Source of the DNA: Apostichopus japonicus
Lineage: Eukaryota
Direction: 5' to 3'
DNA length: 64,000 bases
Assembly (NCBI RefSeq): GCF_037975245.1
Contig: NC_092565.1
Coordinates: forward strand, 23,210,063-23,274,062
The stretch's first letter is position 1. Each line of letters begins with the position of its first letter. Of this stretch, positions 54,279 to 62,843 are shown one piece after another. A program made the translations under genes and the position numbers. The notes beneath the pieces are model-generated. The model saw only the letters and a list, made by a program, of their open reading frames with translations, did not search any database and was not told the DNA's origin.

Positions 54279-54286
54279 TGACGTCA
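54279..54286. promoter_or_regulatory. Perfect CRE palindrome TGACGTCA (1 of 5)
   Basis: Exact 8-mer. See the finding on enrichment. Confidence 0.3.
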
Positions 54287-56451
54287 CTTGTGGAGATCAG
54301 AGATAACTGTCGACCAAGTAAGATCGCTATAGGTGTAATTCACGTATAATTTATATACAAGGAAGCTGTATCGCTGCACGCCGAATTGCACATGCTGCGG
54401 AAGTTATATTATATATAAGTTACATTATTTTGCTTGCTTAATCACTTCGTTGGTAAGCATACGACGCTTTCACATGGATGGGTGGGGTGCTTCTCCCTTG
54501 TGAAAACTGAGGAGTTTTCAGGTATTGGAAATACGTTATATGCATACCAATAGAGTCGCTATTACAACATCACAACGGTTCCCCAACACGACCTATATAC
54601 AAAAACCTAATAAACGTAGCATATCTTAGCCAGGCCTGAGGAGAGGGGGTGGGGGTCAGCCTGAGGACCACACGTCACGGGGCCCGGTGTCAATTAAAGG
54701 CCCGGGAAATATCGGATAAAATATAATGTATTGTCATTTTCATATTATGAATATTTTGATGTTTAATAAGCTGATCAATATACAGTGACTCGAAGAACAG
54801 TTTACCATTTGGAATTGTTTACGTTATTAATTAAGTAAGAAATGTACACAGTATACTTTGGCAATTTTACTATTCTAGAAAGAAAATTATGGTGCTAACC
54901 GATTAAGTAAATATTACTTTAAATTTCAAAACAAACATTGTCACTTGTCATAGACCTATCACATTGCCGTAGCAGGTGCATCTATCGCCAACGCTAATTT
55001 GCATATAACTTAGTATCCCGACTGAAACTGTTTTTTATTTTATTTATTATTATTATTAAATTATTATAATTATTAATCAACCTTTTAAGAGAGAATCAGA
55101 CCTAATTAATAGAGAGTGGTATATAGAACACTGTACCCGTAATTGAAAGGTCATCGATATTGACCTCAAATATGCTAGAACGTCATAAAATGGTCACCCA
55201 TGCTCAACTTTTATAAAGCATTTTACTGTCACTGTAAACGTATACAGTTACCCACACTGATGTATTTAATTGTCTATTCTAACGGTACTCAATGTTTGGG
55301 AATAATATTGAGAATCATATCAAGTCACTAGAAAAGTTCTTTTTGAAAACTTGTAGCAATTTTTAGCGAGTTAAAATTGACCTTTCAGTGAATGCAATTG
55401 TTGGAAAGGAAATATTTGTTTTATTAAGCGCAACCAATTGCTGTAAATAGCATATTTTGTGCCTAGTGTAGTTTTCAGTCCTTTTACACATAAAACATGA
55501 CGAATAAAATGTTCAAAATATAACTTCCTTTTTTCATCCAAAAGTGTAATGCGCCGCGTTAACATTATTGTATTTAATGCAAGATGAGATAAATTCATCG
55601 ATTCTGAAAATTTTCTTAAATCAAAGACACTTTTGGGGGGCATTTCCGTAAAATCTACAACACCGTTAAATGGCTATTCATATGGCACACGACAATGTGA
55701 CACTTATATGGAAAAGAAAAATATTATACTTTATTAGTTGAAAGTCTCATCTCAATTTCATGTTCCTAAACATAGATATGGTTGTTTAAATGTAAACCAT
55801 ATCATTATTCTTCATTAATGTATATAAATGATTCGTCCATTATATAAAGAAATAAAAAGAGATTTCGGCTAAATTGACACGATGACATGCACTAACTCAG
55901 TTCAGTGTTGTCAGAAGCATTCATAATATTACAGCAAAATGGAATAAATTTATATATCTACAAAGATGAAGAAAAGTTTCAGCAGTTTTGTTGAACGAGG
56001 AACTTCGGCCACAATCGGATCAGCTTTCCGCTGCGTTTGGTCGACATTTGAACCAAACCTATAAGTAAACTAATGTTACTCAAAGGGTGGGAAAAAAAGA
56101 TATATTAAAATCTCCTCCTAGATTTCATACAATATGAAGGTTGGTCACTGACACTATGTAATTAAGTTCTTCCATTCGGTTCTCAACATTTTGTCGCCCA
56201 GACTCTTCCTGATATTTTATATTAATGCCAAAACAAACTTTTGTAACTGTTCTTCCTTATTTGAAATGAAAGTTACTTATAGCCAAGCTAAATGGTGGCT
56301 GGATTTTAAATTTAATGTCGAATTTCAACGAATGTTAAAACAATTCGAACAGATGGCTTTAATGTACAAATTACAACAAATAACAAACTGTAGTACAGAA
56401 GCATAAGTATGCGGCTATATCAAATTAACGATACTGCATGGCACTTATAAG

Positions 56452-56572
56452 CATATATATATATATATATATATATATATATATATATATATATATATAT
56501 ATATATATATATATATATGTATATGTATATATATATATATATATATATATATATATATATATATATATATAT
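56452..56572. repeat. (AT)n microsatellite, ~120 bp
   Basis: atatat... with two GT interruptions. Confidence 0.9.
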
Positions 56573-57867
56573 ATTGAATCAAATCTCTCTGTTTGTTTAC
56601 GACCGTTAGGCCTAGGACTACTTTCACTTTCTTGGCTAACCTGTCTAGGTCCCTTCTCTTGAATAGTATCTTTCTCTCGGTCTTACCGATGTAGCTTGCG
56701 AAAGTGTGTCATTTCCTTCCATTGCAATGAATAAAGAGGTGTTTTCATACTTTTCCTCAGTGGAATTGTAAAAAGTGGACGATACGAGTATATGACTGCG
56801 TTAAAATCTTGATCGGGCCGCATGTGTAGACTACTTTGTTTACATTTGTGTAATGAACATACTGACATGGGTGGTCACAGTGATTTTACGGTAAATTTTT
56901 CGCGCCATAAGGGCAATAGAAAATAAATTTCTTTCTTTCGATTGCGACAGCTTTTCTCCATTAAACCCACCTGGTCAGAGTGCATTTAGAATAAGAAACA
57001 TTGAATCTACTTCGGAAGTTTGTTTTCCGAAATTCATCAGCAAACAGGTATTGAGACTTTAACATCATACACTTCAGATTAAAATGTATATATATAGACG
57101 AATCGAATAAGGAGATACGCAAAACTTACTGACTGGTTTTATCTGTGTACATCTGTTATGAAGTTTTTACTGTCCTTGCGGTAAACGAATGTTTAATTAA
57201 GCAGGACAGATTAGCGCGTCCGTAAAACAAAAATAGCTTTCATCGAATTAATTTAAGCCAATGCACTCTAATTAATTTAATCGTAGAAGAGATAACAAGC
57301 GAAGATAAAGAAATTGCGTCTTCATGTAAGGCCTACTATATTTAGTGAAACAATGCCGGTGAGCAGGCGAGCTGACGATACTATTGATGGTACATTGGTT
57401 GGGGGAGGGGTGGGGAGGGGGATGTGTCAAGTAGCACCTGGCTCGTCTATTGTGATAGGAATCGGATACAGTGTGTACAACATATCAAGTAGGAGTCATA
57501 GCTTACAGTTTTTATGTGTGTGTAAATATATATGTGTGTGTGTGTGTGTGTTTATGTATGCTTGTGATAAACATATATATAAAATATTACATTTTCTTCA
57601 CCCTTTTTTTGGATGAGGGCATTGCGCAATAAAGGCTATGATGTCACTCATCGACAACGCCAACAGCTTGGTTTTGTCTTCTTTTTTTTTAAATTGAAAT
57701 GATAAGGCTATATTTGAACATTGGACAATAATTCAGTGGTGTGACGGGATGTTAGTTTATTGTTGGTAATGTGTTAATAAGTGCCTTCATCACAACTAAA
57801 CAGTATAATATCAATTATGAAGATACATCGGTGCAAAATAATGACAATTTGTTGCGATGTCCATGTG

Positions 57868-60294: not shown

Positions 60295-60302
60295 TGACGT
60301 CA
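60295..60302. promoter_or_regulatory. Perfect CRE palindrome TGACGTCA (4 of 5), with a half-site TACGTCAC 35 bp downstream
   Basis: Exact 8-mer. Confidence 0.3.
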
Positions 60303-62835
60303 TTTGATTGGCTTGTTACGTACCAACTACGTCACCTTTACCATACCGTCTATGTCATTGAGCACAGAACAGTGCGATGGGATAATTATTTACAAATTAA
60401 AGACATGACATTTTGGAAATATCAAAAGACGATATTTTTTTTATGATTAAAATAAAAATGTTTCTATTAAAATGGTTACATTCCACCAACGGGCGGTGGA
60501 GACGTTTGTCTTTACTTAGTAGGGAGTCGCCGCATATCGCTGTTCATTTAGGATATGTTGATTGACATTATAACTATCTACACAACATAAGTAACATTCT
60601 CACGGAAAGCTTTAACCTTGATTTTTGATGTTGAAGCATAAAATAAGAGATCGGAAATATTGTAACATAAACTGACTGTTATAGCTAGAAAATGGGGCGG
60701 TTGGATAAAAGTAAAACACAAAGAAGAGTGTTCCAGTATATGTAAGATATCTGAGTAGTAGAGGTCACATTAAACTTATATCCAGGCCTTATAGGTCCGT
60801 AGTTCGGTACGTTATTATCCGATGGTCTTATGACATCCAAAAGATGATATTTGATGGTAATCCGTCTGATTAGTAAGAAAGACAAAGAAAGAGGTCACAA
60901 CTAATTATATGCATGGTATATTAAAAGTCAATTTTCTTAGAGAAGGTCTTGAGAAATTGTACTTAAACACTGACAGCGTACCAAAAATTGAAACTCCATG
61001 TATATATCTTTTACAACTTATTAATGCATCATAAATAAGGACTGAAAAAAAAAATAGTATTCTGTTTGTTTTTCCTTATATGTTTCGCTTTTTCGTTGTT
61101 TTTATTTTTTATCGTATTTATTTATATATATCAAATGACACGCTATGGAGGTGTAAGCCATAGTCCTATACAACCTCCAGTTTTAACTTCAGACTTTTTT
61201 GAACTTCTTTGAACGTTTTATGAACGTTTGAACGTTTTTGAAAAGTATACTTCATAGGTGGTTCTCGCCCTCCAAACTATTCACAAATAATATATTGAGG
61301 AATAGTGTTAAATTGGACAAAATGTGTCTTAGACGAGTTAAGTGTAAAGATGGTGGGAAGAAGGGAGGGGGGGTGAGATGGTGGGAAGAAGGGGTGGCGG
61401 TGGGATGGAGGGGGTTAAGTTGCTACTATACGTATTTACGTGAACGACCATTATTTGATTTTCTTACTTTTCTTGCGGGCCGTGGGGGGGGGGGGGGTGT
61501 TGAGGGTACTTCAAATATTCCCCCTCAAAGCTAATACATCAGGCCTCATCAGCAGGGAAATCTCTCGTCATCTTCATAACAAGGTACAGGCGTTAAATAT
61601 TACCACCTTATTATTTGTGCGAAGGTACATTATTCCTACTTTTTTCTCTCACTTTTCAGTTCTATTTACCAGCTGGTATTTATACATGTGTATAATAAAA
61701 CTAAAGGAGGAAAATATCAAACTCTAACTTCCTCACAGATTTGACGTTTATATCTGAGTAAACAATGCGGTAAAACCTTAGAAAAATGTCAATTTAACAT
61801 TCAGATATCAGATAAAACGGAAATAGCAGGTTTCTCAGTTTCAACGATCACCGTGGGTGGTGTAAAAATATCCTGTTATCGATATATGAAGGAATTATTA
61901 AAAAATATCTCACACATAATAACAACCAGCGAGTGGCCATGCATCTATGGGACTGCTGCATCACGGTGATTAACCCTTACGAGTTTAACGATCACACTTA
62001 CCCAATATGAGCAAGAAGGACTTATGCACGCACGGTTAGGGCTGGCGAGAGGGGGTCGGGAAGGGGGGGGCAGGTTAACGTAGTCAATTTAAGGGGGAGG
62101 CTCGGGGAAGTATGAGATAGAGAATAATGTATTCTCATATTCTAAATACACTCTAAGAACAGTAGCGACTTTGAAAAGGGCCCGGTGATAACTGTTCCCG
62201 GGGCCCAACGTGGCGTTCGACGCCCGTGTGTATTGTGTGGACAGGGGCCTCGGAAAGTCGATGGCAAATGAGGAGGGGGGGTGGGGGTAACTTGATAATG
62301 ATATCGGAAATCCAAGGTCGTCACAATAGAGTGAACAATGAAACATAACAAGCCTTTTTGTAATCAGTGTGCAACTATGACGCCATACCTGGTTTGCTTC
62401 AAGTTCACGTTTGGTACAAACTCTGATAATTTCAGCCAAAATCTTTCCGTATAGGAATCATTTGGATGCAGAATTACATCATCTGGGTGATTATTGATTT
62501 GAGTATGTTCCTCTTTCATCAGTCAAATATAGATTTACCACTGGACTATCCCTTTAATCTACTGTGTACTAAATTCGTCTTCCATCCACTTTGACCAATA
62601 AATATAAAACATTAGAGTTGCAGCAGTGATGGGAAGTTACGAGCTTATACCGTGACGGTCCGGCAGGCTATCAATCTTGAGAATTAGGGATTGCTAGTTT
62701 CTTATTGTGTGTATAAACAATGCCAATGTTCTGTTTCTCTGATCGGAACCATATCCTGACTCTGGGCATGTTTTTTTAATTTTATTTTTAAGGACGTTTG
62801 ACGTAATTTCATGTCTATGACAGCAACCTAGTGGG

Positions 62836-62843
62836 TGACGTCA
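62836..62843. promoter_or_regulatory. Perfect CRE palindrome TGACGTCA (5 of 5)
   Basis: Exact 8-mer. Confidence 0.3.

Follow-up and report, generated by a model that had tools for sequence, protein, structure and literature searches.

The full palindromic cyclic AMP response element (CRE) is an 8-bp site of the basic leucine zipper (bZIP) dimers of CREB, CREM and ATF1 and of ATF2-Jun. Classical functional CREs are single or paired, lie within a few hundred bp of a transcription start site (TSS) and are often conserved; in vertebrate CREB targets, most functional full CREs are found at such a distance. An unmethylated central CpG is a precondition for CREB binding, which methylation blocks, and the known flank preference is RTGACGTCAY, with a purine at position -1. 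A second described system is the homotypic cluster of transcription-factor binding sites in developmental enhancers, where one motif recurs above background near a developmental transcription-factor gene; such clusters are typically compact (hundreds of bp) and built from degenerate sites that differ in affinity. Here we describe a 64-kb stretch of the genome of the sea cucumber Apostichopus japonicus (contig NC_092565.1; hereafter the window), in which six exact copies of the CRE palindrome TGACGTCA lie 5' of NK3/bagpipe, a visceral-mesoderm patterning gene. We put at roughly 45% the probability that CREB/ATF bZIP dimers genuinely bind at least those sites that are grouped in compact modules, and that the holothurian lineage gained these sites in a presumably unmethylated 5' landscape of NK3.

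Exact search located TGACGTCA at 54279, 57868, 58678, 60295, 62836 and 62948, so that all six copies fall within 54279-62955 (~8.7 kb), and found none in 1-54278, the remaining ~54 kb of the window. An earlier note on this DNA had listed five sites and seen none in the other 55 kb; the five positions and the absence from 1-54278 were reproduced, but the copy at 62948, 105 bp past the end coordinate it gave, had been missed. In 100 whole-window dinucleotide shuffles the word occurred 0.45 times on average and at most three times, and no shuffle reached six. Local Markov models, estimated on 52-64 kb with the six sites masked, predicted 0.13 (order 1), 0.19 (order 2), 0.40 (order 3) and 0.29 (order 4) copies, and the probability of at least six was 5e-9 to 4e-6 under these models. 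The expectation of ~0.1 copies given previously is correct for low-order models, and the strong over-representation claimed with it holds for six observed against 0.13-0.40 expected locally. In the ~10 kb 5' of NK3, the excess over composition-based prediction is ~15 to 50 times, and TGACGTCA is the highest-ranking 8-mer of 52-64 kb when microsatellite and poly-G/C words are left out of the ranking. Base composition or a CpG island alone was rejected as the cause, as the local models up to order 4 expect at most 0.40 copies and the flanks of the sites are not GC- or CpG-rich.

The excess concerns the complete palindrome. In the upstream 11 kb, each of the six GACGTC hexamers is extended by T and A to the full palindrome, and none of the three found elsewhere in the window is. 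In 48-64 kb there are only four one-mismatch variants of TGACGTCA against six exact copies; therefore no halo of decayed copies surrounds the sites. This ratio, together with the fact that every regional GACGTC is a full CRE, suggests that the dimeric 8-mer itself matters. A purine occupies position -1 in 9 of the 12 half-sites, which is weak evidence, and the sites at 58678 and 62836 have the longer sequence TGACGTCATCAA in common, the extended match that the earlier note had pointed out.

Seven other NK3 loci served as controls, namely that of an A. japonicus reference and those of six other echinoderms (Patiria miniata, Asterias amurensis, Strongylocentrotus purpuratus, Lytechinus pictus, Amphiura filiformis and Anneissia japonica), at ~21-24 kb each and 157.9 kb in total, with an observed/expected (o/e) CpG ratio of 0.66-0.98. 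The palindrome was found once in these 157.9 kb, downstream of Lytechinus NK3, which means that the word is not a common one in echinoderm DNA of this kind. The half-site hexamers TGACGT/ACGTCA numbered 64 in the controls (0.4 per kb) and 20 in the 11.1 kb upstream of sea-cucumber NK3 (1.8 per kb), a density ~4-fold higher.

The gene itself consists of two recognised exons:

52454-52859, minus strand: NK3 exon 1, with the ATG at 52859 or 52823, the TN/eh1 motif RVTPFSIDDIL and the splice donor AAAG/GTAAG at 52454.
45615-46141, minus strand: NK3 exon 2, with the homeodomain (homeobox at ~45.8 kb) and the stop codon.

A spliced transcript from a different holothurian (P0001) supports the exon junction, and the homeodomain protein is 98% identical to an A. 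japonicus protein that UniRef names Nkx-3.2. Because NK3 is on the minus strand with exon 1 at 52859/52823-52454, the sites are 5' of the gene, 1.4-10.1 kb from its ATG, and the earlier placement upstream of NK3 was right. NK3 is the only recognised gene within reach of the six CREs.

The sites and the motifs beside them are as follows; the palindromes and modules are given without strand:

54279-54286: CRE 1, aTGACGTCAc, 1.4 kb 5' of the NK3 ATG, polymorphic against the A. japonicus reference.
57621-57630: a C/EBP-type perfect 10-bp bZIP palindrome, ATTGCGCAAT, 240 bp from CRE 2.
57639: a CRE-like TGATGTCA, just after the ATTGCGCAAT palindrome and near CRE 2.
57866-57877: CRE 2, whose core (57868-57875) is inside a 12-bp perfect palindrome, TGTGACGTCACA.
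58678-58685: CRE 3, tTGACGTCAtcaac, with a CACGTG E-box 48 bp downstream at 58726.
60164-60335: compact module M1, with TACGTCA at 60164, CRE 4 (TGACGTCA) at 60295-60302 and TACGTCA at 60329.
62799-62955: compact module M2, with TGACGTAA at 62799, CRE 5 at 62836-62843 and CRE 6 at 62948-62955.

CREs 1-3 are solitary. The half-site variants TACGTCA and TGACGTAA are grouped beside full sites in M1 and M2, and CRE 4 directly adjoins a CCAAT box (tttGATTGGct; TGACGTCAtttGATTGG), with a further GATTGG box at ~60095. M2 holds three CRE-type sites in 157 bp and M1 three in 172 bp, counting TACGTCA. The density expected of a homotypic cluster, a minimum of three sites of the same factor in a few hundred bp, is thus reached in M2, and in M1 if TACGTCA is counted. 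Both segments look like compact cis-regulatory modules. G- and C-rich tracts (G8-14, GGGGNGGGG) were also seen, nine in 53830-63590 and 24 window-wide, a mild local excess; as a specific partner of the CREs they were ruled out, since they occur throughout the window.

That the promoter served by the sites would be that of NK3 is uncertain. One possible interpretation is that they are real bZIP sites of another unit, either an unannotated promoter or long non-coding RNA in 57-64 kb or the next gene past the end of the window. CREs stand together with CCAAT boxes in M1 and M2, much as in a promoter, and full CREs usually act near a TSS. The plus strand at 59397-59500 carries a pair of CCAAT boxes and, after them, ccATGGcATG (Kozak-like), a short open reading frame (ORF) and the consensus splice donor CACG/GTAAGT; a transcript that is not annotated might have its first exon here. 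The two sea-urchin loci each hold an aminotransferase gene (Pfam PF00155/PF12897; L007 1-1201 and L009 1-835) that has the orientation of NK3 and ends ~9 kb upstream of it; the C-terminal exon of this gene reads like that of AADAT, and no aminotransferase gene was found in the 11 kb upstream of sea-cucumber NK3. Set against another unit is the coding capacity of the region. ORFs in 53-64 kb are all shorter than 150 amino acids, a 116-amino-acid ORF among them had no match among 5.8 billion proteins, and the same collection contained no homologue of the concatenated stop-free segments of at least 55 amino acids from 52.9-64 kb. Searches of 53-64 kb for Rfam families and tRNAs found none, and NK3 is the only gene annotated in the 20.6-kb reference locus. 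With these points on the two sides, we regard service to another unit as improbable.

The methylation-related context of the sites was deduced from CpG content, which divides the window in two:

45615-64000, no strand: a CpG-non-depleted domain with CpG o/e 0.83-0.97, which takes in NK3 and 11 kb or more upstream of it.

In 1-45.6 kb, which is repeat-rich, CpG o/e is 0.50, and the change near ~45 kb is abrupt. The values in 45.6-64 kb are compatible with a germline-unmethylated-type domain around a developmental gene, and the boundary is consistent with a methylated repeat-rich block meeting an unmethylated NK3 domain. An o/e of 0.83-0.97 suggests that the central CpG of the sites would be unmethylated in the germline. 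CpG-centred words can persist in 45.6-64 kb because the domain is not CpG-depleted; the domain does not explain the excess of TGACGTCA, because the local models already include its composition.

In such a context, an unmethylated TGACGTCA would be bound by a CREB/ATF or ATF2-Jun dimer, the dimer would be phosphorylated in a signal-dependent manner (by PKA for CREB, by p38/JNK for ATF2) and would then recruit CBP/p300, and transcription of the nearest competent promoter would be raised. Binding, signal dependence and target gene are the parts of this scheme that we only infer. The cAMP/ATF-responsive landscape 5' of nkx3 proposed in the earlier note is in line with the perfect consensus, the excess and the CpG ratio, and it finds no backing in conservation or in the state of CRE 1, which reads TAACGTCA in the reference.

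The same note had offered, as another option, an unrecognised element class that uses the palindrome. Comparison of 48-64 kb with the whole window by self-BLAST (word size 9, E ≤ 1e-3) returned nothing but the self-match, and the ±45-bp flanks of the six sites resemble one another in neither orientation, both of which agree with the note's own remark that the flanks all differ and that the sites are not copies of one repeat. By eye, no terminal inverted repeats (TIRs) or target-site duplications (TSDs) were seen at the adjacent pairs 62836/62948 and 57868/58678; the output of the inverted-repeat scan was dominated by a (TA)61 microsatellite array. A repeat origin of the CREs was therefore set aside, as self-BLAST, flank comparison and the inverted-repeat scan, swamped as the last was by (TA)61, gave it no support. 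What would mark an interspersed repeat, a miniature inverted-repeat transposable element (MITE) or a satellite, namely similarity between copies beyond the core, TIRs or TSDs visible by eye at the two pairs, or protein remnants of transposable elements, was not seen. The unrecognised element class is unsupported because flank homology, TIRs visible by eye at the two pairs, protein remnants and RNA genes are all lacking.

A mobile or repeated element that carries or targets TGACGTCA, with the sites as its relics or functional parts, could take the form of transposase-binding motifs in subterminal position, a preferred target of insertion or footprints left by excision. Short dispersed words of this kind do exist in echinoderm genomes: the window itself holds one, the 14-mer GTGATGTCCGAAAC, ten times at 2.8-7.4 kb with differing flanks, and the palindromic TAGGCCTA is dispersed over a crinoid locus, 30 times in 23.6 kb. 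The CREs differ from what such an element would leave, as no similarity between sites extends past 8-12 bp, no transposase or reverse transcriptase remnants were found, and the spacing is in kb and not in the tens of bp that are typical of subterminal repeats. Nor is there any copy of TGACGTCA in the part of the window that is rich in transposable elements and satellites (1-45 kb) or in the 20.6 kb of the reference locus; to this is added the absence of TIRs by eye at the two pairs, with the limit of the automated scan given above. We consider a mobile-element origin very improbable.

Repeats are plentiful in 1-45.6 kb of the window. The ten copies of GTGATGTCCGAAAC lie at 2792-7383 in both orientations, several as pairs 18-19 bp apart, with unrelated flanks, and the pattern looks like that of subterminal transposase-binding repeats of small DNA transposons or MITEs. 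A 204-bp satellite forms a 7.7-kb tandem array at 35507-43216 (37.7 copies, 88% matches, GC ~47-50%), 2.4 kb downstream of the NK3 stop codon, and this array is absent from the reference locus. A 640-amino-acid ORF at 27820-29742 on the plus strand had no Pfam match and no PDB sequence match; its C-terminal part (..NMRKHLAT.., ..HLGHNISVHKEYYR) reads like what we take to be a Crypton-type tyrosine recombinase.

The A. japonicus reference (GCA_002754855.1, contig MRZV01000214.1, our locus L001) is 96.2-96.6% identical to the window, and a Logan contig from SRR23999949 is 99% identical. As the reference reaches only window position 57036, it covers CRE 1 alone, and its 20.6 kb contain zero copies of TGACGTCA. 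Exact-ORF look-ups and 27-mer scans of metagenome contigs, made for further haplotypes and sister species, gave no match. Two structural differences were seen between the assemblies. Collinearity (96.5%) stops sharply at window 44900 / L001 11291, and window 1-44899 has no match with L001 11292-20576; this break could be a large insertion, a structural variant or an assembly difference. At 55112-55938 there is an indel of ~830 bp, present in the window and absent from the reference, which contains one ACGTCA (55180) and no full CRE.

The identity of the six sites with the consensus (all six are exact palindromes), their non-random excess, their independence of repeats, their position 5' of NK3 and their CpG-preserving context are established. 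Several observations nevertheless weigh against reading them as regulatory sites. At 1.4-10.1 kb from the NK3 ATG, they lack, with respect to NK3, the TSS proximity of functional CREs, although an unannotated TSS may lie nearer, and they extend across 8.7 kb. In none of the six other echinoderms do the 10 kb upstream of NK3 contain TGACGTCA; a CRE-rich 5' region is therefore not a conserved property of NK3, since the six non-holothurian upstream regions lack the word. No alignable non-coding block was found between the upstream region of the window and those six loci. Within the species, CRE 1 is TAACGTCA in the reference, in sequence that is otherwise collinear, owing to a G/A polymorphism at 54280; a single change in 8 bp at ~3.5% divergence is not strong evidence against selection and gives no support for it either. 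In addition, the flanks of the six sites are no richer in GC, CpG or CCAAT than random regional positions. Finally, when 8-mers were scanned in every 12-kb segment of the window and of the seven controls (~220 kb), and words of low complexity or with similar flanks were filtered out, further words turned up whose excess equalled or surpassed that of TGACGTCA (P ≤ 1e-8), and a genome-wide scan over all 8-mers could yield such a cluster by chance.

Because other extreme 8-mer clusters exist, a tiny P alone is no evidence of regulation, and the causes of those clusters are instructive. In the Anneissia japonica locus (L011 1-23614), TAGGCCTA, a palindromic 8-mer, occurs 30 times against ~0.25 expected, evenly spread and with unrelated flanks, and is apparently in excess throughout the genome of this crinoid. 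The word TGTCCGAA, which clusters in 1-12 kb of the window, is the core of the 14-mer GTGATGTCCGAAAC, in direct and inverted pairs. For GATGACGA in the sea-urchin loci, acidic coding runs of NK3 account for some of the excess. Each of the extreme control words thus has a visible non-regulatory cause, and none was seen for TGACGTCA.

These results bear on the possibility that the cluster is a neutral accident with no collective function, surfaced by scanning and noticed as it happens to be a famous motif. If the P of 5e-9 to 4e-6, which applies to one window and one word, is multiplied by ~33,000 canonical 8-mers and ~10^4 windows (~0.8 Gb), a few to many chance events are predicted; the comparably extreme words from only ~220 kb, the polymorphic site, the lack of cross-species conservation and the ordinary flanks fit the same explanation. 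For a word that is specified beforehand and biologically meaningful, however, the genome-wide chance expectation is far below 1. The explanations that apply to the other extreme words (a 14-mer repeat, acidic coding runs, a genome-wide word) do not extend to TGACGTCA, the half-site variants lie close to full sites in both modules, and six of six GACGTC hexamers are full palindromes. We judge a neutral accident to be unlikely, though it deserves to be taken seriously.

The reading that we prefer, that at least the modular sites are genuine CREB/ATF sites, has a more far-reaching version, in which a recent, holothurian-specific array of perfect CREs put NK3/bagpipe under cAMP or stress-kinase (ATF) control. 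This we hold to be quite improbable. If it were true, such control of NK3 could tie to visceral regeneration or aestivation in sea cucumbers, and regulatory rewiring would have proceeded by the de novo gain of many exact consensus sites over a 9-kb landscape and not through one enhancer. If the sites are bound at all, they would make the signal-dependent control of an echinoderm NK-cluster homeobox gene easy to test and would be a case of lineage-specific gain of a consensus at multiple sites. If they are not bound, the locus would serve as a caution that significant-looking clusters of short words arise in echinoderm DNA for several unrelated reasons. A literature search found nothing relevant that links TGACGTCA to A. 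japonicus regulatory DNA or CREs to the regulation of NK3/Nkx3.2.

Compared with the full palindromic CRE described for CREB/CREM/ATF1 and ATF2-Jun, the locus has the same 8 bp at all six sites, extended at site 2 to the palindrome TGTGACGTCACA, and has its central CpG in DNA whose composition resembles that of an unmethylated domain, with half-site variants (TACGTCA, TGACGTAA) nearby. Unlike classical CREs, the six sites stretch over 8.7 kb at 1.4-10 kb from the ATG, are unconserved in other echinoderm classes and include one that is polymorphic. With homotypic clusters the locus shares a motif that recurs above background near a developmental transcription-factor gene, and three CRE-type sites within less than 180 bp in M1 and in M2; in contrast to the degenerate sites of typical clusters, exact ones dominate here (six against four), and half of them are solitary. 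The dispersed words TAGGCCTA of Anneissia japonica and GTGATGTCCGAAAC of window 2.8-7.4 kb are also short and exact, with unrelated flanks and with P equally or more extreme. However, TAGGCCTA is even over a whole 23.6-kb locus, as a property of the genome would be, whereas TGACGTCA is confined to one 8.7-kb stretch, and GTGATGTCCGAAAC forms the close direct and inverted pairs typical of transposon ends, whereas the copies of TGACGTCA are spaced in kb. On this comparison, we class the cluster as a candidate further example of a type of element already known, and not as a new type.

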